From an uncultured Victivallales bacterium (GTDB lineage Bacteria; Verrucomicrobiota; Kiritimatiellia; UBA8416): a DNA stretch of 64,000 bases. The notes beneath the pieces were generated by a model. The model ran no database searches. It saw nothing but the letters and a program-made list of their open reading frames with translations, and had not been told where the DNA came from. The stretch spans positions 19,452 through 83,451 of the forward strand of contig CAYLXP010000001.1 in the NCBI GenBank assembly GCA_964387425.1, in the 5' to 3' direction. Each line of letters opens with the position of its first letter. The first letter of the stretch is position 1. Made by a program: the position numbers and the translations under genes. This document shows positions 3,253 through 23,558 of this stretch, in pieces.

Positions 3253-4719
3253 TTATGCGGTGGTTGGCTGATGGGACAGCTGGCGCTTCTTTATGATCGC
3301 GACGGTGGCAATCAGGAGGAGCAGGCAGGCGGTGATTAAGGCGATGGCAATGACGTTTGGTTTTACCTTTCCGACCTGGAAGCGAAAGGTCTCTTTAACG
3401 GCCTGGCCCCCCTCCCCCAGGGATATTTCGGCGTAGTAGATACCGTCTTCTTCGTAGACCCAACCGACTTTGTGAATGTGACGCGGATTGGCCGTGGCCT
3501 CGAAGGGATGATTGCCTTCGCTCAGATCTTCACCATGCTGGTAGACACGGAAGGTCACGGCGCCATCATAGGGTACGTCGGTGGCGGTGTGTTTAACATA
3601 GAGGGCGAGATCGAGCGCTTTCTGCGCCGGAATCGGCCAGAAGGTGAACTGCAGTGTCCATGGTCCCGAATCGCGGAACTCCTCGAAGAGCGGCGCCTGC
3701 GGATAGTTCTCCTGGTAGCTGTAATGCGGGATGCCACGGATATGGTGGGCATGGGCTGCCGCCACGGTCATTAGCAAGGCAAGCACCACACCAGGCATGG
3801 ACCCGGATCTATGGTTTCGTTTGGACATGTTCAGGGTGAAGTCTATCGCATTATCGTCGCACACCTCAATACACCTCCCACAGTTATCGCACTCACCGCC
3901 AAGCGGCTTATGTGATGGATCCAGGTTATAGGGACAGGCCAAGTCACAGGCTCCGCAAGCCGTGCAAGCGTCGGGATCACGTTGCACGCGCAGTCTTCTG
4001 AACCGACCGAGCCAGGCCAATAGCGCCCCACCGGGGCAGAGGCATCTGCACCACAGGCGTTCGCACAGAATCAACTCACACAGAAGCAGTATACCGACAA
4101 AAGCCAACTCCAGCTTCATGAACTCTCCGGTCCATAGGTCGATCATCGCGTCAGAGATTATGCGTGGCGGATAGAATCCATAGAAGAATGGCACGGAGAA
4201 GAGCAGACAGGCAAGACAACCCAGCACGAGCAGAACATACTTCGGCAGGGCAGAGACGGGGATATCGATGAAGTGTACGCCGACATGCGCAAGCTTGCGT
4301 CGCCCCCCTCTCACAATCTCACCCAGTATTCCCATCGGACAGATCCAGCTACAGAATATGCGGCCACCGAATAGTATGCCGAGCGCCGGGAGCAATATCG
4401 ACAGCATCAGGGCGACAGAGAACCTGCGGGATGTCAGGATGCCGCTGGCCATCGCCAGGGGATCGCTGATACGCACCGGTCCCGCCTTGAATGACCACAG
4501 CCCGCCGGAGACGGTGATGGGTCTCCGATCCAAATGAGGCGACTCGCCGAGCGCGGTATCGATCAGGTGAAGCCCCGGATGCTTCTCGATCTCAAACTGT
4601 CCACCGTACTGCGATTTGTAGCGACGGTGCAGGTTGAACCCTGCGATCAGAAAGAGGGCAAGCAGGACCGCGATGCGGAGCAGGTGTCGCCATGGCGCAA
4701 TGTGTCGCCGGGATTTCAT
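3253..4719 (-). CDS. NapH/MauN/CcoG-family membrane polyferredoxin with extra C-terminal TM-flanked periplasmic domain
   Basis: 488 aa with multiple TM helices and the conserved CSWICPMG and CRCLCPGG motifs. Two ferredoxin motifs are present (CTACGACDLACP and CDNCGRCIEVC). The C-terminal ~180 aa start with the His-rich AAHAHHIRGIPHY and end in a TM helix. The start overlaps the upstream gene by 4 nt (ATGA). Confidence 0.75.
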   Translation of the reverse strand: MKSRRHIAPWRHLLRIAVLLALFLIAGFNLHRRYKSQYGGQFEIEKHPGLHLIDTALGESPHLDRRPITVSGGLWSFKAGPVRISDPLAMASGILTSRRFSVALMLSILLPALGILFGGRIFCSWICPMGILGEIVRGGRRKLAHVGVHFIDIPVSALPKYVLLVLGCLACLLFSVPFFYGFYPPRIISDAMIDLWTGEFMKLELAFVGILLLCELILCERLWCRCLCPGGALLAWLGRFRRLRVQRDPDACTACGACDLACPYNLDPSHKPLGGECDNCGRCIEVCDDNAIDFTLNMSKRNHRSGSMPGVVLALLMTVAAAHAHHIRGIPHYSYQENYPQAPLFEEFRDSGPWTLQFTFWPIPAQKALDLALYVKHTATDVPYDGAVTFRVYQHGEDLSEGNHPFEATANPRHIHKVGWVYEEDGIYYAEISLGEGGQAVKETFRFQVGKVKPNVIAIALITACLLLLIATVAIIKKRQLSHQPTTA

Positions 4720-5321
4720 GATAGCGCTGACTTTGGTTTCACGCGGATGGCCTGTGGATAGACGATGCAGGCCTTCTCACACAATCCGCACCCCACACAG
4801 GTGTCGGGGTCAACAACCGGGCGCTCCCACGTTAGCGCCTTAAGCGCTTTGCCCTTGAAGGGGCAAGCCTGTACGCAGGCCCCGCAGGCAAACCCGTTAT
4901 AGGAATTGCAGATGTTCTTATCGACGATGGCGAGGCCCATTTTGACGTTTGCCTGGATGTCGTCGCCACTATCGGACGGCACGGCCTTCAACGCACCCGT
5001 AGGGCAGGCTTGCGTACAGCGCATACAGAGAATGCAGGCCTTTTCGCGCAAGCGGAGGTAAGGGGCGCCGATGCCGTTCGTCGTGCGGTCGAATTTGATG
5101 CAGCCGTTCGGGCAGACATCGCCGCACTGCCCGCACCCGATGCAGCGCGAGAGGAATTCGTCCTCCGGCAGCGCCGCCGGGGGACGAATGACTGCATCCC
5201 GCCATTTGCGGGCGCGGGCCAAGACATTCCTGCGACTGCGGACCAACCATGCGGTAATGGCCGCGGCCGCGGCCGCCGAGAGTAGGCCCTCGAGAAGGCG
5301 TCGCCGGGTTATCCGATTCAT
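4716..5321 (-). CDS. napG: NapG-like periplasmic 4Fe-4S ferredoxin (Tat signal)
   Basis: 201 aa with a twin-arginine leader (MNRITRRRLLEGLLSAAAAAA). Four Cys clusters of the CxxCxxCxxxCP type are present (CIGCGQCGDVCP, CILCMRCTQACP, CGACVQACP, CVGCGLCEKAC). Lies 20 nt downstream of the NapA-like gene. Confidence 0.75.
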   Translation of the reverse strand: MNRITRRRLLEGLLSAAAAAAITAWLVRSRRNVLARARKWRDAVIRPPAALPEDEFLSRCIGCGQCGDVCPNGCIKFDRTTNGIGAPYLRLREKACILCMRCTQACPTGALKAVPSDSGDDIQANVKMGLAIVDKNICNSYNGFACGACVQACPFKGKALKALTWERPVVDPDTCVGCGLCEKACIVYPQAIRVKPKSALS

Positions 5322-5341
5322 GCTGTCAGCTTACCGTATCC

Positions 5342-8062: not shown

Positions 8063-8108
8063 TGTATCTCTCCTATGTGAATTGGGATTCTGTTTTGCAA
8101 TTCTGTCA

Positions 8109-10679
8109 TTATAGATTCAGTTGACCTTCCTCGCGCAGATACTGAATCACGTCATTGATATCCTTCCCGGTCATTTCCACGACCCCGGCTCCCCCGCGGA
8201 TCATCGAACGCATCGTGGAGCCGTGCCCCAACGACATGGTGGCCTGCAGGTAGGAGTCGGTGGCGGCATCGAGGAACCTGGGGTTGAGCAGGCGTGGCGC
8301 AAACCCTTCCTCATTCTTGGCACCGTGGCACTGGGCGCACTGCTGATCATAGAGCAGAGCGCCGCGGGCAGCGGTGCCGAGGGCAAGTTTCGGGGTCTGC
8401 TTCGCGGTGTCTTCCTCGGAACGCAGGTAGCTGACAATGGAGCGGATTTCGTGTTCGGAAAGCTCGGTGAGAGATCCCAATCCATGTGCGAAGGAGCGCA
8501 TCTCGGTGCCAGAGCGACCATTGGCGATGGTGCCCTCAATGAAGCCGTCGCTAACGGTCGAGAGGAACCCGGGCCGTCCCACAGCAGGGCCCGAGCCCCC
8601 TCCCCCGAATTCACCATGGCACTGCGCACAGTTCCTGGCAAAGACCTCGCGTCCCAGAGCCACGTCGCCCTGTGTCACCGCCTTCCCGATGGTGTCGAAC
8701 GGCACACTCTGGAGGGTACGCATGTAGGCGACGATCTCGTCAATTTCGTGTTCGGTGAACGAGGCAAAGCTGCCGGTTCCCTTGAGATTGGAGCGCATCG
8801 CTGTGCCCATGCGCCCGTAGCTGATGGACTCGCGCAGGAACTGATCGTCAACGGCATTGAGGAAATCATGTCCGCCGATGGCAGGCCCGATCAGTCCCCG
8901 TCCCCCTTCCCCATGGCAGGGTGCGCAGGTACGCTCGAAGTTGATCTTGCCCTTGCTTTCGCTGGCCACGGCAACGCCCTTCCGTGAGCGCACTTCGCCG
9001 GCGGGGAAGCTGCGCAGGTAGGCGAGGATACCGCCCAGTTCGCGGGCGGAAAGCTGCGACCATCCGCCCATGGCGGTTCCGTCACGGCCCGCGGTGATGG
9101 TCTCGTGCATAAAGGCGTCAGAGGCAAGGGCGCGGAATTCCGCCGTGTTCAGAGAGGGGCCGATGCCGCCTTCAGCATGCATGCCATGGCACGACCCACA
9201 ACGACTGCGGAAGATGGGGTGCCCGCGCTTTGCCGCATTCGGCTGCTTGGCTTCCGCCTGGACCGCGGCAAGATCGGGCGGCTGGTTACGGTTACGCCCC
9301 AGGTAGGCAACGATGTCCTTACGCTCGTTGTCTCGAAGGTAGTGCCACTTCGGCATGGCAGTACCTTCCCGGCCATCGACAATGGTCTTGGTCAGAAAAG
9401 CGTCCGTGGCGAAGGTCAGGAACTCGGGGCTCGAGAGCGTGGGACCGATCATGTCCATTTCATAGTCGCCCCCAATACCATGGCAGCCTGCGCAGCGACT
9501 CTCGTAACGAACCTTGCCATAGTCGGCACGGCCGACGTAGTCCGGATCGGGTTCCGGGGTCGGCGCGTGCAGGGAGAGAATGTGGCGGCTGACAGCATCG
9601 ATCTGTTCGGCGGAGAGCCCGCCGGACTTGCCCCAGTTGGGCATGATCGAACTGTCGGACTGCGTCACGATGTGCTTCACGAAATCGAGCGTAACAATGG
9701 ACTGAAAACCATTCCCCGAGAGTGAAGGACCTTGCTTTTCGTGTTCACGCAAGGGAGCACCTTCACCGTTCTTGCCGTGGCAGGCGGCACAGAACTCGCG
9801 GTAAATGTGATCGCCGGTAGGCTGAGGCAGATGCTTCTCGAAATCCTGCAGTGCATCTGGAACCTTGCGGGTCTGGAAGCTCTTCATGTAGACCGCGAGC
9901 GCATGCGCCTCGGTGTCACTGAACTGGTTATCCGGCATCACACTCTCGCCGGGCTCGAGGCTTGGGGTCTTCACGGCTTCAAACAGGTAGGCCAGGTTTA
10001 CGTTGTGATCAAACTGCCCGAGCAGGTCTTTGCTGTTCTTGCCGTGGGGCGACTTGAGGTGGAACGAAGCGTCGCCAATGGTGGTTAGATCAGGCCCCAG
10101 GAATCCACCTACACGGTCGATCTTATGGCAGCCAAGACAGCCATTATCGACAAAGAGAGAGCGCCCGAGCTGCAGGGTCGCAAGCTGCGGCAGGCTCTCG
10201 GCGTGGTGGCAGCGCAGACAGTTAGCCTGTGTCAGGTCGCCGTGCAGACGCAAGGCTTCCCAAAACTTGACTTCGTTGGCGTGTGCATCCTTACGGTTGG
10301 TGGCAAGCCCCTGCCCGTCATGACAGATGGTACACCCCACCTCACGGATATCGTGGGTATCCAGGAGTCCGTGGGGATGATAGCGGAGAGGCTGCGGTGC
10401 GTCTGCCATGCGGGGATCTTCCATTCCCACGTGGCACGAAACGCAACGGTCAGTGCGGCCCAGTTCCGGCAGAACGAACTGACGCATCTGGATGGGGTAG
10501 CTTTCCGCCGCGGCCTTCTCGGCCGGGGTTTCTGCCAACTCGATGAGCTTTTCGCGGTAGCGTTTCTGGTGGCGGCGGTACTCCATCATGCGGGTTTCGC
10601 GCATGGCCGCAAACACCAGCAAGACAATGGCCAACGTGCTGGCTCCGAGGATCAATCTCTTGAAGTATCCATTATTCAT
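8109..10679 (-). CDS. membrane-anchored decahaem cytochrome c (N-terminal tetrahaem module + six class-I cytochrome c domains)
   Basis: Ten CxxCH motifs were counted by eye: CVSCH, CTICH, CLRCH, CLGCH, CAACH, CAGCH, CGSCH, CAPCH, CAQCH, CAQCH. The preferred start is ATG 10679 (MNNGYFKRLILGASTLAIVLLVFAAM, a TM anchor), 19 nt after the cyt b stop. The track ORF extends to 10751. Confidence 0.85.
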   Translation of the reverse strand: MNNGYFKRLILGASTLAIVLLVFAAMRETRMMEYRRHQKRYREKLIELAETPAEKAAAESYPIQMRQFVLPELGRTDRCVSCHVGMEDPRMADAPQPLRYHPHGLLDTHDIREVGCTICHDGQGLATNRKDAHANEVKFWEALRLHGDLTQANCLRCHHAESLPQLATLQLGRSLFVDNGCLGCHKIDRVGGFLGPDLTTIGDASFHLKSPHGKNSKDLLGQFDHNVNLAYLFEAVKTPSLEPGESVMPDNQFSDTEAHALAVYMKSFQTRKVPDALQDFEKHLPQPTGDHIYREFCAACHGKNGEGAPLREHEKQGPSLSGNGFQSIVTLDFVKHIVTQSDSSIMPNWGKSGGLSAEQIDAVSRHILSLHAPTPEPDPDYVGRADYGKVRYESRCAGCHGIGGDYEMDMIGPTLSSPEFLTFATDAFLTKTIVDGREGTAMPKWHYLRDNERKDIVAYLGRNRNQPPDLAAVQAEAKQPNAAKRGHPIFRSRCGSCHGMHAEGGIGPSLNTAEFRALASDAFMHETITAGRDGTAMGGWSQLSARELGGILAYLRSFPAGEVRSRKGVAVASESKGKINFERTCAPCHGEGGRGLIGPAIGGHDFLNAVDDQFLRESISYGRMGTAMRSNLKGTGSFASFTEHEIDEIVAYMRTLQSVPFDTIGKAVTQGDVALGREVFARNCAQCHGEFGGGGSGPAVGRPGFLSTVSDGFIEGTIANGRSGTEMRSFAHGLGSLTELSEHEIRSIVSYLRSEEDTAKQTPKLALGTAARGALLYDQQCAQCHGAKNEEGFAPRLLNPRFLDAATDSYLQATMSLGHGSTMRSMIRGGAGVVEMTGKDINDVIQYLREEGQLNL

Positions 10680-10698
10680 GTTGTGCTTCCTAACGGCG

Positions 10699-12258
10699 CT
10701 AGTGTGTCGGCCAGAGTGAGGGCCACCAGAAGAAGTCCCAGTTCGGCCCACGGTGGACCAGGGCGAAATAGGTAAGAATCACGAAACTCACGAGGAAGCA
10801 GGTGAAGAACACGAGGACCGCTCTGCGCGTTGATCGCGTTACCCCCAGGGTTCCGAGGGTGAGGAGTGTCAGGAATGTGGCCAGGACCGTGCCGGGGTTG
10901 ACCGCCGTGATCAAGAGCTGCGGGCAATCCGGCATCCAGTCCCGAATCCATCCGGCATTGATCGTAAACGCCAGTAGGCCGACAACGGCGGCGGCCATAA
11001 TAACGGTCATGATTGTCGCGAGGCGACGCTCTCCGGGTGTTCCGAACCAGCGACCAGTACCGCCTTCACGCCGATCGAGATAAGGCACCAGCATCAGCAT
11101 CAGAACCGTGATGCCGGGCAGCACCATGCCGCCCGTGAATGCGGAGTAGGAGATAATCTCCTGCATCGCCAGGAAGTACCATGGTGCCTTGGCGGGATTC
11201 TCCGGTACCGCCGGATTTGCCAACTCCTTGAGCGGGGCATCGGCAACCAAGGCCAAGGCGAGCATCGCTACCAATAGGATAGCGGCGATGGCTATCTCGG
11301 CGCGCAAGACATGCGGCCAGCTCAGCACGGTGCGCTCGGGGCCGCGGTTGACGGCGGCCGTACGGTCTTTGACCAGGCACATCAGACCGTAAGTCTTGGC
11401 CTCGACGGGCAGGAAAGCCTCCTCGGCCAAGGCATCCGTTGGGGTGCCGGCAAGCTCTTCGTCCCGGATATCCTCCGGGCGCGAAAGGCCGCCATCCTTG
11501 CGGATGCGCCAGAAGTGGGCGGCGAGGAACAACACCATCGTAATGGGCAGGACAATGCAGTGGCCCCAGTAGAAGCGCAGCAATGCAGACTCGCCAACGC
11601 TATTGGAGCCCAGCATGATCAGCTTCTGGAACCCACCGAGATCGGCGTACTTCGTAATACCCATGGCGTCGGTTACCTCGGACGGGCTTCCGGCGATATT
11701 GGCGCCAATCGTGATCGCCCAGTAGGCAAGCTGGTCCCACGGCAGACAGTAGCCGGTAAAGGCCAGGGCGAGAGTCAGGACAAAGAGAATAACGCCAATG
11801 ACCCAGTTGAACTCGCGTGGCTTCTTATAAGAATTCGTATAGAAGACGCGGATCATGTGCAGGAATACGGCCACGACCATGGCGTAGGCGGCCCAGCGAT
11901 GCAGGTTGCGAATAATCCGGCCGCCCGGCACCACGAAGTGGATGTTCTTAACCGACTCATAGGCCCCATCGACTGAAGGTACATAGTGAACCATCAGGAC
12001 GGCGCCTGAGACACATAGCATCAGAAAGAGGATCCCGGCGGCGACGCCCAATCCCATGGTGAAACTGGGACGCAGGCTCCAGCGATGGGTACGCACGCTG
12101 TGAATATGGAGAAAGACGTTACCGAAGACAGACTGCGAGCGGCCACGTGTGGTCTCGATCGGGCTGCGACGGCTTACGCTGCCTGCCACGTTCTTCGGGA
12201 GCTCACGCAGGTTCTTCAGCAGTGCGGCGAACCCGGTTGCCTGGGAGATCTCACTCAT
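10699..12258 (-). CDS. cytochrome b subunit of a Rieske/cytochrome b complex (b6-like N-terminal part fused to subunit-IV-like part)
   Basis: 519 aa polytopic membrane protein. Haem-ligand His pairs lie in helices (NVFLHIHSVRTH, NLHRWAAYAMVVAVFLHMIRVFY, HFWRIRKDGG). The start overlaps the Rieske stop by 4 nt. Confidence 0.85.
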   Translation of the reverse strand: MSEISQATGFAALLKNLRELPKNVAGSVSRRSPIETTRGRSQSVFGNVFLHIHSVRTHRWSLRPSFTMGLGVAAGILFLMLCVSGAVLMVHYVPSVDGAYESVKNIHFVVPGGRIIRNLHRWAAYAMVVAVFLHMIRVFYTNSYKKPREFNWVIGVILFVLTLALAFTGYCLPWDQLAYWAITIGANIAGSPSEVTDAMGITKYADLGGFQKLIMLGSNSVGESALLRFYWGHCIVLPITMVLFLAAHFWRIRKDGGLSRPEDIRDEELAGTPTDALAEEAFLPVEAKTYGLMCLVKDRTAAVNRGPERTVLSWPHVLRAEIAIAAILLVAMLALALVADAPLKELANPAVPENPAKAPWYFLAMQEIISYSAFTGGMVLPGITVLMLMLVPYLDRREGGTGRWFGTPGERRLATIMTVIMAAAVVGLLAFTINAGWIRDWMPDCPQLLITAVNPGTVLATFLTLLTLGTLGVTRSTRRAVLVFFTCFLVSFVILTYFALVHRGPNWDFFWWPSLWPTH

Positions 12259-16473: not shown

Positions 16474-16878
16474 ATGGATATTATCCGTAGAGAGGCAGAT
16501 TACGCATTCCGCTGCCTGGTCAGGCTATCGGAGCTTGATGAGGGCGCCGTGGAGAGTGTAAGGCAGATTGCTACCGCAGAATCGCTCCCGGAACCCATGC
16601 TTCGCAAGATCTTCCAGCGGCTGGGCAGGAGCGGGATAGTGGCTTCCACCAAGGGGAGTCGTGGGGGCGTTCGGCTCGCTCGCGACCCCCACCAAATCAC
16701 GTTGCTTGATGTTCTCGATTCGATCCAGGGCCAGGTCACGTTGAATCGCTGTGTACGTCCCGGCGGATGCTGCGAGAACATGGGGCACTGTCGTTTGCAT
16801 AAACGTATAAAGCAGGCTCAAGACAAGATCGATAACATCTTGAATGAAACCACCCTACAGGATTTCCTGACCGCGTAA
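16474..16878 (+). CDS. Rrf2-family transcriptional regulator with putative Fe-S-ligand cysteines (IscR/NsrR-like)
   Basis: The N-terminal wHTH region (ADYAFRCLVRLSE ... MLRKIFQRLGRSGIVASTKGSRGGVRLA) is typical of Rrf2. A Cys cluster CVRPGGCCENMGHCRLH is present. ATG 16474 lies behind an AAGGAGGA Shine-Dalgarno; the track ORF starts at TTG 16468. Confidence 0.85.
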   Translation: MDIIRREADYAFRCLVRLSELDEGAVESVRQIATAESLPEPMLRKIFQRLGRSGIVASTKGSRGGVRLARDPHQITLLDVLDSIQGQVTLNRCVRPGGCCENMGHCRLHKRIKQAQDKIDNILNETTLQDFLTA

Positions 16879-17925
16879 GCCTGCCACGTCCGAGGGGCTA
16901 TTGAGGTTGCACCAAGCCTCCGCGAGTTCGGGCGGGACCGTAGGCGTGATGACTTCTGCGCGGCTCTTAAGATGATGTGGGGCTGCGGCCCTCTCGAGCA
17001 GGGCGTGGGCCCGACAGTCGTAGTGAGCAAGCAAGGGTTCAACGCCGGCATCAGCGGCCAGCTTGGGAAGGGTCGCCCAAACACCGGGCGCGCGCGCGTG
17101 CAGAAGCCAGTCGATTGCCTCACCGGTAACGAGCGGCATGTCGCAGGCAGCGAAGAGCCAGGAAACCGTGGGTGCCCATCGCATGGCGGCAAGCATGCCG
17201 GCGCGAGGCCCCTTCATGCCCGGCACATCCGGCAGGCGCAAACGTGACTCGTGGCCCGTCGGTAGTGTTGCACGCCCGAGCACGACGATCTCATCAACGC
17301 GTCCTTCGAGCGCCACAACCACGTGCTCGAACCATGTTTTGCCATCATGAGTCATGCCGTGCTTGGGGACTCCCATGCGTGATGAATCGCCCCCCACAAG
17401 GATTCCGCCATAGACGGGCGTTTGAAGGCTCACCCCCCGAAGGCGTTCTTGTATATGGAGTAGCACAGGCCCGACTCGATCCTCATCGCGCCCAAGATCG
17501 AGTCGAACACCGGTCGCATCCTCGGGAGCCGTGTCGGCCTCGTTCCGCCGTAACCAGATCTTCTCCAAGTACGGTGTCCACTTGCGTCCTTCGACAAGAA
17601 CAAGGTCATAGTGACGGCAGAGAATCGACAGCAGCTGGCTGAGCTCAGTCTCCGAGTCGCCGTGGACACGCACAAAGCTCTGTTCGGGGCCCTGGAGCAC
17701 GACATCGGCCCCGGCCTGGTAGAGGCGGTCTGAGTCCTTGCCGGGGGTGTCCAACATCAAACCGTGCACGTCATGCTTCAGCACGGCAACCTTGAGTCCC
17801 AGGACCATCAGTTGCGGTACCAGCGTCTCGATCAATGTTGTCTTGCCGGAGTTGCTGTAGCCGCAGATCGCGATGGCGGGCAGGTTCGCTAACGGTGTCG
17901 GTTTAACGTCCACAGTCGGAAGCAT
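16855..17925 (-). CDS. mobA: bifunctional MobB-MobA (molybdopterin-guanine dinucleotide biosynthesis)
   Basis: 356 aa. The N-terminal MobB P-loop is AICGYSNSGKTTLIE. The C-terminal half is MobA-like (GGILVGGDSSRMG). The 3' end overlaps the convergent rrf2 by 24 nt. Confidence 0.8.
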   Translation of the reverse strand: MLPTVDVKPTPLANLPAIAICGYSNSGKTTLIETLVPQLMVLGLKVAVLKHDVHGLMLDTPGKDSDRLYQAGADVVLQGPEQSFVRVHGDSETELSQLLSILCRHYDLVLVEGRKWTPYLEKIWLRRNEADTAPEDATGVRLDLGRDEDRVGPVLLHIQERLRGVSLQTPVYGGILVGGDSSRMGVPKHGMTHDGKTWFEHVVVALEGRVDEIVVLGRATLPTGHESRLRLPDVPGMKGPRAGMLAAMRWAPTVSWLFAACDMPLVTGEAIDWLLHARAPGVWATLPKLAADAGVEPLLAHYDCRAHALLERAAAPHHLKSRAEVITPTVPPELAEAWCNLNSPSDVAGLRGQEIL

Positions 17926-18862
17926 CTCCCTTCATCTTCGCAAGCCCGTGCCCAAGGGCCGGCAGGATGGCGGCAATGCTCTCGCGTGAGGCACGCTCCG
18001 ACCCAGGTGTTGATACGATCAGCGTCTGCTTGCGAATGCCCGACACGCTGCGTGAGAGCATTGCGTGGGGCGTCTTGGCCATCGAGGAGGCGCGCATCGC
18101 TTCGTCCAGGCCGGGTGTGGGTCGCTCAATGACGTCGCAAACCGCTTCCGGGGTCACGTCGCGCGGGGAGAAGCCTGTGCCGCCGACGGCGACCACAAGA
18201 TCAATTGAGTGACCATCGGCATAGTGTCGCAAGCGCTCGGCAATCTGCTCCCGTTCGTCGGGGATGATCTCCAGGCGATAGATACTGCTTGGAAGTTGAG
18301 TGCACAGCAGCTCTGCAACTCCCGGTCCGGCGGTGTCTTCGGCTTCACCTCTTGAACAGCGATCACTAATGGTTAACACGACAATCTGCAGAACTGCGCG
18401 CGGGACACACTCCACAATCTCGACGCTATCACCTTTGCAGATACTTCCGCCCTTCTCCACCCTCGCAAAGATGCCGAGTCGCGGCATGATGCAGTCACCT
18501 GTCTGGTGATAAATGGCGCAATGAGAGTGGCATGTCTTGCCGAGCTGGGAGACTGTCAACTCAACATCAGCTCCCAGCCGTAGCCGGCTGCCCAGCCCCA
18601 GCCGCGACAAATCCAGCCCCGACACAACGAGGTTCTCGGCAAAATCCCCCGCCTTGAGATCCGGAAGCCCCTTGGCCTTCATTGTGGCAATATCCTCGGC
18701 AGCCAGTAGGCTGACCTGTCGGTGCCAGTCGCCGGCATGGGCATCGCCCTCGAAACCTCGCTGTGTCACCAGGCGCGCCTCCTCAACGGTCGTCTTACGC
18801 TCGCCCTTCTTCTTGCTGAGGCAGATGGCATCGATCCGGCCCTGTGGTTGGGTCGTCATCAA
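17903..18862 (-). CDS. mogA: MOSC domain fused to MogA/MoaB-type molybdopterin adenylyltransferase domain
   Basis: 319 aa. The N-terminal ~150 aa are MOSC-like (GFEGDAHAG ... CIMPRLGIFARV). The C-terminal part is MogA/MoaB-like (VLTISDRCS ... VVAVGGTGFSPRDVTPEA ... STPGS). Confidence 0.75.
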   Translation of the reverse strand: MMTTQPQGRIDAICLSKKKGERKTTVEEARLVTQRGFEGDAHAGDWHRQVSLLAAEDIATMKAKGLPDLKAGDFAENLVVSGLDLSRLGLGSRLRLGADVELTVSQLGKTCHSHCAIYHQTGDCIMPRLGIFARVEKGGSICKGDSVEIVECVPRAVLQIVVLTISDRCSRGEAEDTAGPGVAELLCTQLPSSIYRLEIIPDEREQIAERLRHYADGHSIDLVVAVGGTGFSPRDVTPEAVCDVIERPTPGLDEAMRASSMAKTPHAMLSRSVSGIRKQTLIVSTPGSERASRESIAAILPALGHGLAKMKGDASDCGR

Positions 18863-19353
18863 ACGTCTCCTTCAGCATCCGCCTGCCAGTCACCAGATTT
18901 GCCGCCGGTCTTCTCGAGCAACCGGATGGTTCCAATCTGAATACCTTTGCCGGCTGACTTGCACATGTCATAAACGGTGAGGGCTGCGACGGAAACAGCC
19001 GTGAGGGCTTCCATCTCAACGCCGGTAGGACCCGTGCAACGGACGGCGCTCTCCAGCCGCAACGCATCTCCGACCCACTCCGCCTCGATGTCGACGTGAT
19101 CCAGCATGAGAGGATGACACATGGGGATGAGTTGCGCGGTCTGTTTCGCCGCCATGATGCCGGCAATGCGGGCAGTTTCGATCACGTTGCCTTTAGCGAC
19201 CTTGCCGGTCTCACGTAGTTGCGTCGCAATCCTGGCCCCCAACGCGATATGGGCCTCGGCGCGCGCCGTGCGCTGCGTGGCCTGTTTGTGACCGACATCG
19301 ACCATGCGCGCTTCTCCTGTCGGTGAGAGATGCGCAAAGGTATTCTCAGTCAT
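18859..19353 (-). CDS. moaC: cyclic pyranopterin monophosphate synthase MoaC
   Basis: 164 aa with MVDVGHKQAT ... IPMCHPL motifs. Overlaps the downstream gene by 4 nt. Confidence 0.9.
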   Translation of the reverse strand: MTENTFAHLSPTGEARMVDVGHKQATQRTARAEAHIALGARIATQLRETGKVAKGNVIETARIAGIMAAKQTAQLIPMCHPLMLDHVDIEAEWVGDALRLESAVRCTGPTGVEMEALTAVSVAALTVYDMCKSAGKGIQIGTIRLLEKTGGKSGDWQADAEGDV

Positions 19354-19410
19354 AACCTGTTATTCCTGGTTGGTTACCTTGCCGGACTGGCCCGGCTGTT
19401 CTCAAGTCGT

Positions 19411-20385
19411 TCATCCACCAATGCTCGCCATAGAAGGTCGCGGTTCAAAGTGGCTACTGGTGCGCTTGTGGCCCATAGCCCGTTCTACAGCACCTGCCAA
19501 TCCTCGGCGCGCGGTTTCGGATTCCGCTCCCAAATGAGGACGGACAAAGACCCGGTCCTGCCGGGCCAGGCAACCGATGAGGTGGCCATCGGACGTCAGG
19601 CGCAGCCGATGGCAGCCCGTACAGAAGGGCTGACTGGTCGGCGTGATGATCCCGAAGCGCCCTCGCCCGGCCGAGGAGGATTCGACTTCGTGGATCCTGC
19701 TGGTTTCGCCGGGGCGATGGGGATGAGGCTGGATGGAGAACTCCGGGCTGAGCGCGTTGCAGATCTCGACACACGAGACATAGCGATTCTCGAAGTCCTC
19801 CCGGAACATTCCGGTCGGCATAAGCTCCAGGAAGCGCAACTCGCAGCCCTCGTTGAGTGCGAAGGCGAGCATGTCCTGCAATTCGTGGTCGTTGATGCCT
19901 CGCATGACGACCATGTTGAGTTTCACGGGTGTCAGCCCAACCCGAACTGCCGCACGGATGCCTCTGAGGGTTCGCTCGATATCTCCCCCACGGGTCAGGC
20001 GGCTGAACGTATCGGGGGCCAAGGTGTCGAGGCTGATGTTGACACGGTGAAGCCCGCTGTCGCGAAGCAACTCGGCTTTGCATGCAAGAGCCTGACCATT
20101 CGTGGTGAGCGCAAGATCGGGGATCTCCATCTGACTCAGCATCCGGACCAACACTTCGATGTCGGCCCTTACGAGAGGGTCTCCTCCCGTTATGCGGACC
20201 TTGTCCAACCCGAATCCCTCTGTAAGGAAGGAGACCAGGGAGAGGATCTCCTCGTAGCTGAGGATATCCGAGTGCGCGCAGGGCTTCACCCCATCCTCCG
20301 GCATACAGTACTGGCAGCGCAACTGGCAGCGGTCGGTAACGGAGACCCGCAATGTTAGACCATGGCCTGTAAAGGGAGTGATCAT
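19411..20385 (-). CDS. moaA: GTP 3',8-cyclase MoaA (radical SAM)
   Basis: 324 aa with the radical-SAM motif CQLRCQYC in LRVSVTDRCQLRCQYCMPEDG and a C-terminal Cys cluster CTGCHRLRLT. Confidence 0.92.
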   Translation of the reverse strand: MITPFTGHGLTLRVSVTDRCQLRCQYCMPEDGVKPCAHSDILSYEEILSLVSFLTEGFGLDKVRITGGDPLVRADIEVLVRMLSQMEIPDLALTTNGQALACKAELLRDSGLHRVNISLDTLAPDTFSRLTRGGDIERTLRGIRAAVRVGLTPVKLNMVVMRGINDHELQDMLAFALNEGCELRFLELMPTGMFREDFENRYVSCVEICNALSPEFSIQPHPHRPGETSRIHEVESSSAGRGRFGIITPTSQPFCTGCHRLRLTSDGHLIGCLARQDRVFVRPHLGAESETARRGLAGAVERAMGHKRTSSHFEPRPSMASIGG

Positions 20386-21596
20386 ACGAACGGCCTCCAG
20401 GGACAGAACTCTACCATGGTTCCCGCCACCGCATGTGCCACGTCCGCGGCAATGATCACGGCTCCGTCAGCCTTGGCACCCGCCACCAGGTCCGCCGAAC
20501 CACTGGACTCAACGGGCATGGCTACCAAGCCGTTCTCATCATGCGTCAGGACGACCATGGTGTGCCGGACGCGGCCGGCCTTGCTGACGATATCCTCGCC
20601 CAACCTGACATGAAACCGAGTGTGGCAACGTTCCGGGGGAAGGCCCGACAGGCGCTTCAATGCCGGCAGGATGAACTCCTGTAACCCGATCATGGAGCTG
20701 AGCGGGTTTCCCGGAAGGCCATACAGCACCTTTCCCTCCCCAGTAGTGGCGAAAAGCTGTGGCTTTCCCGGTTTAATGCCAATCTTGTGGAAGTGGATGG
20801 TACCTCCGGCGCGCTTGATGGCTTCGGGCACTACGTCGTATTTCCCAACGGAAACGCCACCGGTCAGAATCAGGAAGTCGCACTCCGACAGTAGTTCGCC
20901 GATGGCTTTGATAACCCTTGTTTCATCGTCATCGACTGCGGAGCAATGGACGATATTGAATCCCGATGCGTTTAGCCCGGCCACAAGCATGGGACCGTTT
21001 GAATTGCGCAGCTGGTGGGATGCCACATCGTCGGCGACATCCAACAGCTCAGAGCCGGTGGAGAGAATGGCGACGCGAGGCTTTGCATAGACGGATGGTC
21101 TGTCTACTCCCACGGCCGCACAGACGCCTACCTCTGCAGCCTGCAGAACGACGCCCGCCTCAAGCAGCACCTCCCCGCGGCGGGCATTCTCGCCTTTGAT
21201 GAAGATGTGCTGACCACGCCTCGGTGGTTTCATGAACCGGACCTGGTTCTCCGAAACGGATTCGGTATCCTCCACCATGACGACCGTGTCGGTGTCCGGA
21301 GGGACGTTGGCGCCGGTGTAGATGGCAACGCACTCTCCAGGCGCGACTGCGGGTACCACATCTGATCCCGCCGGGACTTCCCCGATCTTCTTCAAGGTCA
21401 CAGGACAGTGGCGGAGATCATCGGCATGGACAGCATAGCCATCCATGGCTGAGCGATTTGCGGCGGGCACGTCGCGATCGGCCACGACCGGGACGGACAA
21501 CACGTAGTTCGTTGCCGATGCAAGATCCAGCCGCATCGAAGGCAAGGGTTGCGTATGCGCAATAACCTGTTGCCACGCATCGCGTGGAGTCATCAT
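20382..21596 (-). CDS. moeA: molybdopterin molybdotransferase MoeA
   Basis: 404 aa with RSAMDGYAV, ILSTGSELL, ILTGGVSVGKYD and LPGNPLSS motifs. Overlaps moaA by 4 nt. Confidence 0.9.
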   Translation of the reverse strand: MMTPRDAWQQVIAHTQPLPSMRLDLASATNYVLSVPVVADRDVPAANRSAMDGYAVHADDLRHCPVTLKKIGEVPAGSDVVPAVAPGECVAIYTGANVPPDTDTVVMVEDTESVSENQVRFMKPPRRGQHIFIKGENARRGEVLLEAGVVLQAAEVGVCAAVGVDRPSVYAKPRVAILSTGSELLDVADDVASHQLRNSNGPMLVAGLNASGFNIVHCSAVDDDETRVIKAIGELLSECDFLILTGGVSVGKYDVVPEAIKRAGGTIHFHKIGIKPGKPQLFATTGEGKVLYGLPGNPLSSMIGLQEFILPALKRLSGLPPERCHTRFHVRLGEDIVSKAGRVRHTMVVLTHDENGLVAMPVESSGSADLVAGAKADGAVIIAADVAHAVAGTMVEFCPWRPFV

Positions 21597-21600
21597 GTGG

Positions 21601-21735
21601 GTCTCCTTTCCAATGGTGATATGGCATACCTACTGCATGCCATCCCCGGGAGGCGTGCCTGTTTCCAGTCATGCCCTTACCGGCCAGGGAACCCTAGTTG
21701 TACACCTTAGGTTCAAAGGCTCGGAGACGCTGTTA
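21601..21735 (-). promoter_or_regulatory. candidate molybdenum-cofactor (Moco) riboswitch in the moeA operon leader
   Basis: The minus-strand leader reads GTCTCCGAGCCTTTGAACC...GGTTCCCTGGC...GCCTCCC...GGCAT(N9)ATGCC...GGAAAGGAGAC, followed by 4 nt (CCAC) and then ATG. GUCUCC (5') can pair with GGAGAC (3'), which contains the Shine-Dalgarno. CUCCGAGCC, GCCUCC and GGAAAGG match my memory of the conserved Moco-motif blocks. No covariance model was run. Confidence 0.55.
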
Positions 21736-21863
21736 ACCTCAGTCAACGTTGGCATGCATAGCACGCAAGTGGGTACCGGCGCAAGCAATCACAACGACCA
21801 CCGGCAGCGGAAGATTGCCGCAGGCATGACTGACCAGAGGAAGGAAGGTCGTAGCGCGACTTC

Positions 21864-23558
21864 CTATTTCTCGAGGATGCGGATGTTGCGCCAGCGGGTT
21901 GGCTTGCCCTCGCTCTGGAATGCGATGTAGCCCTTGGTGAGCTCACAGTTCCTGACGGTAGCCACCTGGGTACCGTTGACGAAGATGTCCATATCTCCCC
22001 CGCGGACATCGACTTTCAGGGTGTTGTACTGCCCGACTGGCTTTTTGACCTTGGCGAGGGCGTTCGCGTCAAACGTCCGCTTGCACACGACGTTACGCGG
22101 GATCGGAAGAATGATGCCCATATCCTTGTACTTCCCCTGGACCTCGATGCTGCGCGGCCAGACGCCGATGCCTTTGCCCGGAACGCAGTGCGCCAGGATG
22201 CCGCTGTTGCCCCTGAAGTCGGCGTCGCTCTTCAGGTCGCCAGGGCGATCGAATGCAAGGTCTGCCACAATCGTATAATTGCTGTAGTCATCCCGCTTGG
22301 TGCGCATGACGCCACCCGGTCTGCCCGTACAGTGGATCACCCCGTCCTTGACAGACCAGGTGCCCTCGTTGCCACCCTTCTCTTTGCCCATCTCGAAGCC
22401 GAAGTTGCTGAGATCTTTGCCGTTGAAGAGATCGACCCAGCCACCACTGCAAGTTCCGCAGCACTTCTTTGCGGCCGGTTTGCTGCTGCACTTGCAGCCT
22501 TTCGAACTCTTGGCTTCGCACTTACAGCTAGGTTTGCAGTTGCCTGAACACACCTTCGCGTTCTTGGCGGCCTCCGCTTTCTTGCAGGTTCCACAGCATT
22601 TCTTTGCCGCGGCCTTCGTGCTGCATTTGCAGCCTTTGGCGCCCTTGGCCGCGCACTTACAGTCCGCCTTGCAGTTGCCCGAACACTTCTTCGTAGCCTT
22701 GCTGCTGCATTTACATGCCTTCGTGCCGTCGTCCGCGCACATTGTTTCATCCACGGCAATGCTCGCCTGCTTACAGGTCCCACAGCACTTCTTCTTGGGC
22801 AGTTCCTTGATCTTGATGTTGCGGAACTGGATCAGCGCCGAGGCGGGGCTCCACTTCTTACTCTTCTCGTTGAAGCCGCCATGGTGCTGGAGGGCGATCG
22901 GACCCTTCGTGGGGGCGCCTTCCAGGTTGGTATCGATCACCTTCTTACCATTCAGCACGATGTCAACCTTCGTGCCACGCATCGTGATTTCCATCTTGTT
23001 CCACTCACCAACCGGGCGGTCGGCTTTGCAGATCGGCAGCGCGCCCTTGCGCAACGCGGGGTCCTTGCTGGTGTGATAGCCCCAGAGTTGTCCGGAACCG
23101 CAGGGCCAGCACCAGAGGTTGGCCTGTGTCTTGCCGGTGCCGCGCAGGAAGATACCGGAGTCGGCGTTGTCTATGGCCTGGGTGACCTTCTTGCCGTTCT
23201 TATCGACCTTCTGCGTGCCGTCGGGATTGAAGACCTTGGCGTTGTACTTGCCCGTCGTGCGTTTAAAACGCCACTCGAGCTTCAGGAGGTAGTCCTCGTA
23301 CTCCTTCTCCGTGACGAGATTGCCGCCCTTGGCTTCGTAATCGATGACACCATCGATCACCTTCCAGTTGTGCTCTTTCTTGGGGAGCACCCAACCGGTG
23401 AAGTCCTTGCCGTTGAAGAGGCTGACCCAACCTCCGTCGTCGGCTTTCTTGTGGGTGTGAGGGCCACAACCTCCGCAACCCGCCAAGGCGACCGGAGTCC
23501 CAAATCCAGCCAGAACAGCCACAACCACCATCCACAATGCCACGCGTTTCATTGCCAT
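21864..23558 (-). CDS. lipoprotein with two DUF1080 (3-keto-disaccharide-hydrolase-like) domains joined by a Cys/Lys-rich repeat linker
   Basis: The preferred start is ATG 23558 (MAMKRVALWMVVVAVLAGFGTPVALAGC; lipobox LAGC) behind a GGGAGAG Shine-Dalgarno. DUF1080 hallmarks occur twice (GWVSLFNGKDFTGW ... FRNIKIKEL and GWVDLFNGKDLSNF ... WRNIRILEK). Between them are 24 Cys in about 113 aa. Confidence 0.8.
   Translation of the reverse strand: MAMKRVALWMVVVAVLAGFGTPVALAGCGGCGPHTHKKADDGGWVSLFNGKDFTGWVLPKKEHNWKVIDGVIDYEAKGGNLVTEKEYEDYLLKLEWRFKRTTGKYNAKVFNPDGTQKVDKNGKKVTQAIDNADSGIFLRGTGKTQANLWCWPCGSGQLWGYHTSKDPALRKGALPICKADRPVGEWNKMEITMRGTKVDIVLNGKKVIDTNLEGAPTKGPIALQHHGGFNEKSKKWSPASALIQFRNIKIKELPKKKCCGTCKQASIAVDETMCADDGTKACKCSSKATKKCSGNCKADCKCAAKGAKGCKCSTKAAAKKCCGTCKKAEAAKNAKVCSGNCKPSCKCEAKSSKGCKCSSKPAAKKCCGTCSGGWVDLFNGKDLSNFGFEMGKEKGGNEGTWSVKDGVIHCTGRPGGVMRTKRDDYSNYTIVADLAFDRPGDLKSDADFRGNSGILAHCVPGKGIGVWPRSIEVQGKYKDMGIILPIPRNVVCKRTFDANALAKVKKPVGQYNTLKVDVRGGDMDIFVNGTQVATVRNCELTKGYIAFQSEGKPTRWRNIRILEK
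22449..22787 (-). repeat. in-frame tandem repeat encoding the Cys/Lys-rich linker (KKCCGTC ... CSGNCKxxCKCxAKxxKGCKCSxKxAAKKCCGTC)
   Basis: Two ~135-nt units are clearly similar at the DNA level (22449-22550 versus 22551-22685), and a third KKCCGTCK lies at ~22770-22787. Confidence 0.75.

Follow-up and report, generated by a model that had tools for sequence, protein, structure and literature searches.

Results and discussion

The 64-kb window (by which we mean the whole stretch of DNA that was analysed) encodes an exported protein of 564 amino acids in which two DUF1080 domains are separated by a 113-residue insert rich in cysteine and lysine, and this insert is under purifying selection focused on Cys and Lys. 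We put forward, tentatively and with confidence somewhat below even, the reading that the insert is a putative exported metallothionein-like metal-thiolate module.

An exported protein with two DUF1080 domains

The gene and the features flanking the insert are as follows.

21864..23558, minus strand: coding sequence of the exported tandem-DUF1080 protein, 564 aa, stop codon included (open reading frame list, sequence, two PF06439 matches, exact protein on at least 24 independent contigs)
23475..23558, minus strand: signal peptide (residues 1-27) plus Cys28 of the lipobox L-A-G-C (MAMKR, hydrophobic stretch, LAGC)
23451..23477, minus strand: N-terminal C-G-G-C-G-P-H-T-H motif, residues 28-36, directly before DUF1080 domain 1 (alignment; pLDDT below 50)
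22806..23432, minus strand: DUF1080 (PF06439) domain 1, residues 43-251 (Pfam, profile positions 1-187 of 187; AF2 pLDDT 80-95)
21876..22442, minus strand: DUF1080 (PF06439) domain 2, residues 373-561 (Pfam E=2.5e-29, profile positions 1-186 of 187; AF2 pLDDT 85-96)

A Shine-Dalgarno-like stretch, GGAAGGGAGAG, can be read 5' of the ATG. Inspection of the signal peptide revealed no twin arginine, and export of the protein is therefore of the Sec type. Residues 25-28 (L-A-G-C) match the lipobox pattern [LVI][ASTVI][GAS]C, a signature from which we predict a possibly lipid-anchored lipoprotein. An initial reading of this DNA from its letters alone (the sequence-only reading, below) had called the protein a lipoprotein; the canonical L-A-G-C28 bears this out for the window protein, but the designation does not extend to the closest orthologues, in which the lipobox is not conserved (LAHC in P0001, PGRC in P0002). 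The CG[GTN]C at the start of the N-terminal motif is kept, among the aligned homologues, only by the window protein, P0001 and P0002.

Both flanking domains are members of PF06439: the profile is matched over its full length, the AF2 models and Foldseek matches give the concanavalin-like beta-sandwich fold of the family, and the entire protein scores E=2.4e-62 in Pfam. Foldseek matched the DUF1080 part to 4jqt, 3osd, 8tda, 8rr2 and 8v31 (the best being 4jqt, E=8e-22), and domain 1 to 4jqt, 8tda, 8rr2 and 8v31. The same domains and the two-domain architecture are shared with BT3469 (PDB 4jqt), BT2 (8tda), AL2 (8v31) and 8rr2, although the identity of the window protein to the BT2 and AL2 structures is only about 19%. 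The activity of BT2 and AL2 is known and is of the 3-keto-glycoside lyase/hydratase type (bioRxiv 10.1101/2024.03.25.586180), and the substrates of periplasmic DUF1080 proteins are glycoside-derived (PMC9007349; bioRxiv 10.1101/2024.03.25.586180). Judged by these domain matches, the window protein is an exported two-domain putative enzyme of this type. Neither BT3469 nor the other tandem or single DUF1080 proteins have a Cys/Lys-rich insert, whereas the window protein has one.

The closest named homologues of the whole protein are from Verrucomicrobiota and Puniceicoccaceae MAGs. A search of 185,579 genomes with the whole protein returned no relative, and that collection therefore lacks a representative genome of the organism; the JGI metagenomes gave only two relatives, both distant. 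We found no metal-homeostasis genes near the gene, in the window or at the P0001 locus, and its surroundings include neither a sulfatase nor a polysaccharide-utilisation context. A functional tie to the adjacent Moco genes was considered and ruled out (own Moco riboswitch leader; synteny missing at the P0001 locus).

Composition and internal duplication of the insert

The insert and its parts are located as follows.

22449..22787, minus strand: Cys/Lys-rich insert, residues 258-370, 113 aa (translation, composition, Tandem Repeats Finder; AF2 pLDDT about 30)
22686..22787, minus strand: first, non-duplicated part of the insert, residues 258-291, CCGTCKQASIAVDETMCADDGTKACKCSSKATKK (alignments; mostly common to orthologue P0001)
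22551..22685, minus strand: repeat copy B1, residues 292-336, CSGNCKADCKCAAKGAKGCKCSTKAAAKKCCGTC plus KKAEAAKNAKV (Tandem Repeats Finder period 135, codon comparison)
22449..22550, minus strand: repeat copy B2, residues 337-370, CSGNCKPSCKCEAKSSKGCKCSSKPAAKKCCGTC (codon comparison with B1)
22773..22793, minus strand: KKCCGTC motif copy 1, residues 256-262 (sequence)
22584..22604, minus strand: KKCCGTC motif copy 2, residues 319-325 (sequence)
22449..22469, minus strand: KKCCGTC motif copy 3, residues 364-370, directly before domain 2 (...CCGTC-SGG-WVDLFNGKD; sequence)

The 113 residues include 24 Cys (21%), 26 Lys, 19 Ala, 11 Ser and 9 Gly, and Phe, Trp, Tyr, His, Leu and Arg are all absent; this density of Cys is matched by no other real reading frame within the window. 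Successive cysteines are separated by 0, 2, 11, 7, 1, 7, 3, 3, 1, 7, 1, 8, 0, 2, 11, 3, 3, 1, 7, 1, 8, 0 and 2 residues, giving three CC, three CxxC (within CCGTC), five CxC and four CxxxC motifs, and nearly every Cys is adjoined by Lys. Tandem Repeats Finder reported a repeat at 22448-22693 with a period of 135 nt, 1.8 copies and 78% matches without indels. The sequence-only reading had described much of this correctly: its interval translates exactly to the 113-aa string it quoted, DUF1080 domains lie on both flanks as it had said, and its 24 cysteines in CC, CxC and CxxxC motifs and its tandem duplication of about 45 aa (about 135 nt) were recovered.

An assembly or annotation artefact, in which the repeat was mis-assembled or the reading frame is wrong, is extremely improbable. 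Mis-assembly can befall repeats, and across the region all three frames of the minus strand and one of the plus strand are open; against this, the two copies are only 78% identical, the DUF1080 domains on both sides fix the reading frame, and at least 24 independent assemblies yielded an identical gene. In the sequence collection, 37 blocks list the exact 564-aa protein, and every one of the 24 contigs read carries it. These contigs derive from separate JGI and ENA metagenomes, with JGI 3300009314, 3300009405 and 3300009431 and ENA ERZ23498658 among the sources; the DNA of the gene differs between them by 0-1 nt, and no copy-number variation of the repeat was seen across these copies. The concern, raised at the outset, that the region might be an assembly artefact can be set aside because the copies differ at 22% of bases and the independent assemblies agree.

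Evolution of the linker and selection upon it

A survey of the linker among DUF1080 homologues, suggested by the sequence-only reading, gave a graded picture. The hinge is short and Cys-poor in 16 of the 17 close homologues aligned. The nearest orthologue, P0001, has a 40-residue version of the insert, a linker with 8 Cys and two KKCCGTC motifs (the window protein has three). Other relatives hold only a CCxxC at the junction before domain 2 (CCGAC in P0002; CCSAC or CCSSC in P0009, P0010 and P0013), without lysine runs in the alignment. By blastn, positions 1-863 and 1063-1695 of the window coding sequence align to positions 1-854 and 835-1467 of the P0001 gene, which delimits one further feature.

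22497..22695, minus strand: block missing from P0001, about 219 nt (73 codons); its ends fall within the repeated CKCSSK sequence and are uncertain by about 20 nt (blastn, protein alignment)

Comparison with P0001 over the 45 shared linker codons gives a dN/dS of 0.12, which lies between the values for the domains (0.04-0.07) and for the signal peptide (0.27). Between repeat copies B1 and B2 the ratio is about 0.06, with synonymous sites near saturation. The two copies differ by 8 synonymous and 7 replacement codon changes; all 10 Cys and 7 Lys are kept, all 7 replacements falling outside those 17 positions (P=0.004), and the Cys spacing is strictly conserved. A CCxxC hinge motif appears to have been extended by duplication, with its Cys and Lys then held fixed.

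These values bear on two other explanations. A selectively neutral low-complexity expansion, in which replication slippage lengthened a short CCxxC/Lys-rich hinge into a flexible linker that is passive and functionless, is disfavoured and in our view quite unlikely. It would fit the indel relative to P0001, whose ends lie in about 20 nt of repeated sequence, as is typically seen after slippage or unequal recombination, as well as the homologues that do without the insert and the lack of detectable homologues of the insert elsewhere. However, the insert is constrained (both dN/dS values are low, the second with synonymous sites nearly saturated) and is therefore not junk; the replacements avoid every Cys and Lys, and the gene is invariant in many metagenomes, without variation in copy number.

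It is also unlikely that the insert is principally a polycationic arm, in which the excess of Lys (26, with Asp and Glu together numbering 7; net charge about +19) would let the hinge bind anionic partners such as LPS, the cell surface or anionic or sulfated glycans, the cysteines only stiffening it. The conservation of every Lys between the repeat copies agrees with such an arm, as do the glycoside-derived substrates of periplasmic DUF1080 proteins; but it leaves unexplained why Cys is the most constrained residue and why the CCxxC seed of the relatives has no lysine runs, and the gene has no sulfatase or polysaccharide-utilisation neighbours.

Family searches and predicted structure

The insert had been said to correspond to no described domain, and the searches agree. 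Pfam returned no family at E<=1 for the insert alone (metallothionein families included), NCBIfam had no family for the whole window protein, and a search of PDB sequences gave only artemin at E=0.24, a chance match. A word-indexed HMMER search of 5.8 billion proteins found 456 candidates sharing words with the insert, none of them at E<=10, and phmmer gave no match among 1.84 billion representatives, where the cluster of the window protein itself is represented by a 175-aa C-terminal fragment and a self-match was impossible. A profile built from seven KKCCGTC-containing segments likewise matched nothing among the 5.8 billion proteins, a search in which short biased profiles cannot reach significance.

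The resemblance to eukaryotic metallothioneins asserted in the sequence-only reading holds for composition and fails for descent. The local alignment score of the insert is 91 against human MT2A and 34 against SmtA, so that in composition only it is indeed nearer a vertebrate metallothionein than SmtA. Shuffled MT2A scores as high as the real sequence (z=0.4), however, and there is therefore no evidence of homology, the likeness being compositional only; the SmtA score lies below the shuffle mean. On this shuffle test homology to either protein was rejected, the alignments being no better than shuffles.

Structure prediction, another check proposed at the start, yielded no confident AlphaFold model of the insert, either within the full-length protein (pLDDT about 30) or alone (pLDDT 56, pTM 0.25). 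The segment has neither a hydrophobic core nor a confidently predicted fold, as would be expected of one that folds only around a ligand.

The KKCCGTC motif in small exported proteins

A DNA-pattern scan for KKCCGTC in the 185,579 genomes listed about 120 matches, mostly chance and off-frame; we dismissed most of them on these grounds, including a conserved off-frame Limnohabitans gene and matches in other PVC genomes. Among the matches listed, three from Victivallales are in frame and lie at the C-terminal end of Cys/Lys-rich stretches in proteins with signal peptides: L048 (208 aa), L065 (113 aa, a small lipoprotein with 15 Cys) and L080 (99 aa). Cys/Lys-rich stretches of this kind are rare, numbering nine in six frames of 856 kb, and five of the nine fall in the reading frames of these three proteins. 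In L048 a YHS-like domain (E=0.043, below the Pfam cutoff) comes after the motif, and 3' of its gene are encoded an outer-membrane factor (OEP) and a fusion protein of CusB type that carries a heavy-metal-binding domain (HMBD, E=1.8e-9) and DUF3347. Pfam had no match for L065 or L080, chlamydial Cys-rich families included, and we found no description of the three small proteins in the literature.

A signal peptide, a Cys/Lys-rich stretch and a C-terminal KKCCGTC are thus found together in the window protein, P0001, L048, L065 and L080. The three small proteins share with the insert a signal peptide, a low-complexity region rich in Cys, Lys and Ala and the terminal motif, but they stand alone (L048 being fused to its YHS-like domain), and their Cys spacing before the motif is unlike that of the insert. 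L080 is identical to repeat B1 at 27 of 44 positions (61%, E=3e-6), a score reached in 9 of 2,000 shuffles with the motif held fixed, whereas L048 and L065 have no ordered similarity to the insert beyond motif and composition (shuffle z=-1.0 and 0.2). Common descent with the insert is supported by these alignments only for L080.

Metal thiolates or disulfides as possible roles of the cysteines

In our proposed reading, the insert would be a lineage-specific module that duplication has enlarged where the two DUF1080 domains are hinged. Lacking a fold of its own, it would wrap soft metal ions into thiolate clusters through its 24 thiolates (in CC, CxC, CxxC and CxxxC), with the lysines compensating charge; the metal would most likely be Cu(I), otherwise Zn(II) or Cd(II), and would be buffered or sequestered in the periplasm beside the enzyme. 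Metal binding itself, the choice of metal, the redox state of the thiols in vivo and a benefit to the enzyme are points that we infer. The sequence-only reading had named three candidate functions without choosing among them: a metal buffer, a disulfide spacer and a redox element. Metal binding is modestly favoured by the selection on Cys and Lys and by the recurrence of KKCCGTC in Cys/Lys-rich proteins that are exported, of which one is encoded in a heavy-metal efflux cluster.

Set against what defines a metallothionein, the insert has a Cys content within the usual range (about 15-35%) with the characteristic CC, CxC and CxxC motifs, and the expected scarcity of aromatic residues and lack of His; it is, however, internal to a 564-aa protein and not a low-molecular-weight stand-alone protein, and it matches no curated metallothionein profile (Pfam Metallothio*, Metallothio_Pro/SmtA or others). 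Weighing against a metal-binding role are its Cys density of 21%, compared with about 30% in classical metallothioneins, its even Cys count, which permits complete disulfide pairing, its delivery by Sec into the periplasm and the lack of metal-homeostasis genes near the gene; moreover, the link to the efflux cluster of L048 was made through seven residues, the very motif used as the search pattern.

The main rival, which we hold to be possible though doubtful, is that the 24 cysteines are oxidised after Sec export to form a disulfide-locked spacer or envelope anchor. As a spacer, 12 intramolecular disulfides would make a stiff, protease-resistant and strongly cationic stalk parting the two DUF1080 domains; as an anchor, intermolecular disulfides would tie the enzyme into a cross-linked envelope network like that of OmcA/OmcB in Chlamydia, which lies within the PVC superphylum. 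Closely spaced cysteines in the periplasm are normally oxidised to disulfides, and Sec export (with the possible lipobox) together with even Cys numbers throughout (24 in the insert, 10 in each repeat unit and 8 in the P0001 linker) therefore keeps this explanation alive. The strict Cys spacing between copies would be equally expected of a disulfide framework. Other tandem DUF1080 proteins (4jqt and the aligned homologues) work with a short plain linker; the insert is therefore dispensable for catalysis and could be structural. Yet no chlamydial Cys-rich family or any disulfide-rich domain was matched in Pfam, AF2, which often recognises disulfide-rich folds, gave none, the pairing of Lys with almost all cysteines and the complete lack of hydrophobic or aromatic residues are more typical of metal-thiolate proteins than of knotted disulfide domains, and one protein sharing the motif belongs to a metal-efflux cluster. 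The chlamydial precedent consists of Cys-rich exported proteins and lipoproteins whose cysteines cross-link the envelope (PMC6752827). The 15-Cys lipoprotein L065 is similar in kind to OmcA; OmcA and OmcB, though, are structural envelope proteins whereas the window element is an enzyme insert with no sequence match to them, and none of the insert, L065 and L080 matches their Pfam profiles.

Relation to known systems and significance

Compared with eukaryotic metallothioneins (vertebrate MT1/MT2; plant type-2, with N-terminal CCxxxCxC), the putative metal-thiolate module is likewise high in Cys arranged as CC, CxC and CxxC with Lys beside Cys, has no aromatics or His and is predicted to have no autonomous fold; but those proteins are small and cytosolic with about 30% Cys, whereas the insert lies within an exported enzyme of 60 kDa and has no sequence relationship to them. 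SmtA/BmtA (PF02069), PmtA and MymT are Cys-based metal buffers of bacteria, as is proposed for the insert, yet they are small and cytosolic, and SmtA is zinc-finger-like, with His and aromatics, and dissimilar to it. To our knowledge, such bacterial metallothioneins are few, and all those described so far are cytosolic. The K-P-C-C-A-C Cu(I) site of Cox17, in the mitochondrial intermembrane space, offers two adjacent cysteines and a third, set among lysines, within an oxidising compartment, although its spacing is CCxC and not the CCxxC of the insert, which has no twin-Cx9C scaffold and no homology to it. In the periplasm, the handling of copper and zinc falls to Met/His proteins; the exception that relies on Cys is Csp1, which is exported by Tat. 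Csp1 is, like the insert, Cys-rich and exported to the periplasm, and stores many Cu(I) ions on thiolates (reviewed in PMC7558416), but it is exported pre-folded by Tat as a four-helix bundle with a Cys-lined core, whereas the insert follows a Sec signal, has no confident bundle and has no Pfam match. Metallothionein-like Cu(I) clusters are reported to sit inside larger proteins, as in dMTF-1 (PMC2396432). We found no paper on a periplasmic metallothionein-like lipoprotein in the literature.

It is conceivable, though we consider it doubtful on present sequence comparisons, that KKCCGTC-terminated Cys/Lys-rich stretches form a new class of Sec-exported, metallothionein-like putative metal-binding modules in PVC-group bacteria (Verrucomicrobiota-like, Victivallales), occurring as small stand-alone proteins or lipoproteins of the periplasm, fused N-terminally to YHS-type proteins of metal-efflux operons and, in the window, as a duplicated enzyme insert. 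If this is true, metallothioneins would for the first time be known from the periplasm. With its 113 residues the segment is compact and a candidate metal-binding tag for periplasmic or surface display, and the locus illustrates how such a module may originate, a CCxxC hinge motif having apparently been lengthened by duplication. A Sec-exported, unstructured Cys/Lys module kept by selection would represent a new way to buffer thiophilic metals or, alternatively, a new way of building an extracytoplasmic tether stiffened by disulfides, in a group of bacteria that has been little studied.

Organization of the gene and its neighborhood

The insert sits wholly within one gene of the window. The gene, the features of its product and the surrounding clusters are as follows.

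Features in the window (minus strand throughout)
23558..21864, minus: coding sequence of the 564-residue protein
N-terminus, minus: Sec-type signal peptide without a twin-arginine motif, terminating in L-A-G-C28, in agreement with a lipobox
23451-23477, minus: residues 28-36, C-G-G-C-G-P-H-T-H, directly after the signal peptide and before domain 1
Residues 43-251, minus: PF06439/DUF1080 domain 1 (E=2.4e-62 for the whole protein)
22449-22787 exactly, minus: residues 258-370, the Cys/Lys-rich insert (113 residues)
Residues 373-561, minus: PF06439 domain 2 (E=2.5e-29)
21587-21738, minus: molybdenum cofactor (Moco) riboswitch, RF01055, 60.7 bits, downstream of the gene
16855-21596, minus: run of Moco biosynthesis genes
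20382-21596, minus: moeA
19411-20385, minus: moaA, overlapping moeA by 4 nt
18859-19353, minus: moaC
17903-18862, minus: MOSC plus MoCF_biosynth gene
16855-17925, minus: mobB-mobA fusion
3253-12258, minus: respiratory-looking cluster (Fe-S protein, molybdopterin oxidoreductase, cytochrome c, cytochrome b)

The gene starts at an ATG (giving MAMKR) with a purine-rich GGAAGGGAGAG stretch just 5' of it. Both DUF1080 domains are modeled by AlphaFold2 (AF2) with pLDDT above 85, and the top Protein Data Bank (PDB) match to the model is BT3469 (4jqt), likewise a tandem DUF1080 protein, followed by the single-domain 3-keto-glycoside eliminase/hydratases 8tda, 8rr2 and 8v31; DUF1080 proteins act in the periplasm as enzymes of the 3-keto-glycoside route (bioRxiv 10.1101/2024.03.25.586180; PMC9007349). 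The reading frame of the insert is settled, because DUF1080 domains flank it on both sides. Long open reading frames (ORFs) also cross it in other frames (22297-23076, plus strand, 259 residues; 22337-22783, minus strand, 148 residues); we rejected these as genes and regard them as by-products of its skewed composition. Domain 1 carries a W-C-W-P-C-G-S-G motif (a CxxC at residues 150-153, about 23100-23111, minus strand), in which W-C-W-P and G-S-G are invariant across 18/18 aligned sequences and the second Cys is present in 15/18.

The DUF1080 gene and moeA are 268 nt apart; the riboswitch lies in this gap and is the leader of moeA-moaA-moaC. The respiratory-looking cluster includes a 906-residue molybdopterin oxidoreductase and an 880-residue multi-heme cytochrome c with five cbb3-type c domains and further matches of the c7/MtrC type. 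At the locus of the nearest orthologue, P0001 (L001 6001-8370), the place of the Moco operon directly downstream is taken by a gene for an AP_endonuc_2 (xylose-isomerase-like) protein, a type annotated as sugar phosphate isomerase, as is the 3-keto-glucoside lyase with which DUF1080 enzymes are paired (bioRxiv 10.1101/2024.03.25.586180). Synteny between the two loci thus breaks directly 3' of the DUF1080 gene, and the only shared neighbor is a divergent upstream TMEM260_N/TPR membrane protein. Because the riboswitch intervenes and synteny is confined to the upstream side, we rejected a functional link of the protein to molybdenum.

A cysteine/lysine repeat maintained by selection

The sequence-only reading had described a Cys-rich, tandemly repeated linker between two DUF1080 domains, and this description is confirmed. 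Of the 113 residues, 24 are Cys, 26 Lys, 19 Ala, 11 Ser and 9 Gly; Phe, Trp, Tyr, His, Leu and Arg are absent. The segment carries a net charge of about +19, and its cysteines form three CC, three CxxC, five CxC and four CxxxC motifs. Comparable Cys richness was found nowhere else in the genuine reading frames of the window. By Tandem Repeats Finder the period is 135 nt (1.8 copies, 78% identity, 22448-22693), corresponding to the protein unit CSGNCKxxCKCxAKxxKGCKCSxKxAAKKCCGTC, with 10 Cys; the two copies, B1 and B2, are separated by an 11-residue spacer, KKAEAAKNAKV.

That the repeat might be an assembly artefact, as the sequence-only reading had allowed, is excluded by its recurrence in independent metagenomes together with the 22% divergence between its copies. 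A public collection indexes the exact protein in 37 blocks, and all 24 contigs read carried it, from sources including JGI 3300009314, 3300009405 and 3300009431 and ENA ERZ23498658; the gene differs by 0-1 nt among them, the flanks agree, and no variation in repeat copy number was seen among the contigs compared.

P0001 (found on four contigs) is 89% identical to the window protein, and 81-86% identical in DNA. Between the two, dN/dS is 0.04 and 0.07 in the DUF1080 domains and 0.12 over the 45 shared linker codons; for the signal peptide plus N-terminal region it is 0.27. Between B1 and B2 (34 codons) there are eight synonymous and seven replacement codon differences (dN/dS about 0.06), and the replacements miss all 17 conserved positions, leaving 10/10 Cys and 7/7 Lys unchanged (P=0.004). 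From these codon comparisons we conclude that selection maintains the insert and that the constraint falls on Cys and Lys; they also disfavor neutral slippage, a reading we consider quite improbable. The proportion of synonymous differences between B1 and B2 (0.69, resting on about 20 synonymous sites) is at least that between the orthologues, and the duplication is therefore, on a rough estimate, about as old as the window/P0001 species split, or older, in which case the short P0001 linker may be a secondary deletion. That linker has 40 residues and eight Cys (CCGTCKQASVAVVETMCADAGTPACKSSSKAAAKKCCGTC); 73 window codons are missing from it, and both ends of the indel lie in about 20 nt of repeated CKCSSK sequence.

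In an alignment of the window protein with its 17 closest two-domain homologues, most of the latter have a short, plain hinge, and two groups have CCxxC at the domain junction: the homologue P0002 (72% identical), with KKACCGAC, and three Puniceicoccaceae-type proteins with ECCSAC or ECCSSC. Among the aligned homologues, CG[GTN]C after the signal peptide occurs only in the window protein, P0001 and P0002, so that in this clade a CxxC precedes each DUF1080 domain. Cys28, if lipidated, would not be free to serve in the N-terminal motif. The closest named homologues belong to the PVC superphylum. A gene for a CD-NTase/SMODS-type nucleotidyltransferase lies near the P0002 gene (L130 10915-11341); it is a candidate for CBASS defense and unrelated to the insert.

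Search for a known family or fold

The insert matches no described domain, in line with the sequence-only reading, which had recognized none: there was no Pfam match at E<=1, no NCBIfam match to the whole protein, a single chance match in a PDB sequence search, and no HMMER match among 5.8 billion (word-indexed) or 1.84 billion (exhaustive) proteins. A profile of seven KKCCGTC motif sequences also found nothing in a database search. Composition correction and database size weaken these nulls for the insert, which mean 'not detectably related' rather than 'unique'. Structure prediction with AF2, suggested earlier as a check, yielded no confident fold for the insert (pLDDT about 30 in context, 56 alone), with weak helical propensity near its AKKCCGTCKKAEAAK stretches.

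The earlier interpretation, that the insert resembles eukaryotic metallothioneins (MTs) more than bacterial SmtA, stands in part. In composition it does (local alignment scores of 91 against human MT2A and 34 against SmtA), but homology to MT2A is without support, since shuffled versions of the MT2A sequence score the same as the real one (z=0.4). The insert is real, selected and undescribed; it belongs to no MT family, though it may work most like an MT.

The KKCCGTC motif in other exported proteins

The window protein has three copies of KKCCGTC and P0001 has two; each copy closes a Cys-rich stretch, and the last one adjoins domain 2. A degenerate DNA pattern for it, scanned over one genome per species (185,579 species), listed at least about 120 matches; by our own estimate about 140 are expected by chance at equal base frequencies, so that the total is roughly at chance level, and most matches listed are off-frame or isolated. 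Three in-frame matches stand out among those listed, all in Victivallales metagenome-assembled genomes (PVC superphylum); in each, KKCCGTC forms the C-terminus of a Cys/Lys/Ala-rich stretch of a signal-peptide protein.

Exported proteins carrying KKCCGTC
L065, 1446-1787, minus: lipoprotein of 113 residues with 15 Cys, FIAGC lipobox and C-terminal KKCCGTCKK
L080, 2967-3266, minus: secreted protein of 99 residues with KKCCGTC at or near its end
L048: secreted protein of 208 residues with four ADCPKDKAxCAKADGEKVK-type repeats, then KKCCGTCK, then a YHS-like domain
L048, 2373-6755 of CAZSRU010000012.1: heavy-metal efflux cluster led by the 208-residue protein

Segments with at least five Cys and six Lys per 30 residues number nine in 856 kb (six frames), and five of the nine fall in these three ORFs; given this rarity, the coincidence of motif and context is not chance. 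L080 matches repeat B1 at 27/44 residues (pairwise E=3e-6), a score reached by 9/2000 shuffles with the motif held fixed. No ordered similarity to the insert beyond motif and composition was found for L048 or L065, and common descent is plausible, on this alignment evidence, for L080 only. Neither L065 nor L080 matches a family, apart from a weak C_rich_MXAN6577 match for L080 (E=0.014); both could be free-standing forms of the module in the window.

The YHS-like domain of L048 falls below the Pfam cutoff (E=0.043) but fits the pattern CPV.G…GK.VY.CC..C…P.KY. Downstream of the L048 gene, on the same strand, come an OEP outer-membrane factor and then a CusB-type membrane-fusion protein that carries DUF3347 and a heavy-metal-binding domain (HMBD, E=1.8e-9). 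A frameshift seems to split the fusion protein, an ORF upstream has FCS/YHS-like and CPMHP motifs, and downstream no intact RND pump ORF was found.

Possible function of the insert

We cautiously favor an MT-like metal-binding module. In its favor are the MT-type composition, the lack of an autonomous fold, the constraint that selection places on Cys and Lys, the location of one protein with the motif (L048) in a metal-efflux cluster, and precedents: Csp1 is an exported Cys-based copper store (PMC7558416), and dMTF-1 is reported to have an MT-like cluster within a larger protein (PMC2396432). An exported, unstructured polythiolate hinge would fold around soft metal ions, lysines would compensate for the negatively charged thiolate clusters, and KKCCGTC would be a recurring three-thiolate site. 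A polycationic binding arm is an improbable alternative.

Against metal binding stand Sec export into a compartment that usually oxidizes cysteines, the even Cys counts (24 in the insert, 10 per unit, 8 in P0001), the lack of metal genes near the window gene or in the P0001 locus, and the thinness of the link to the efflux-associated protein (seven residues). The main rival, which we judge possible but somewhat less likely, is a disulfide-locked stalk or envelope-cross-linking anchor, as in the disulfide cross-linking of the chlamydial envelope by OmcA/OmcB (PMC6752827). The disulfide and MT-like readings are compatible, since metal binding could be under the control of a thiol-disulfide switch.
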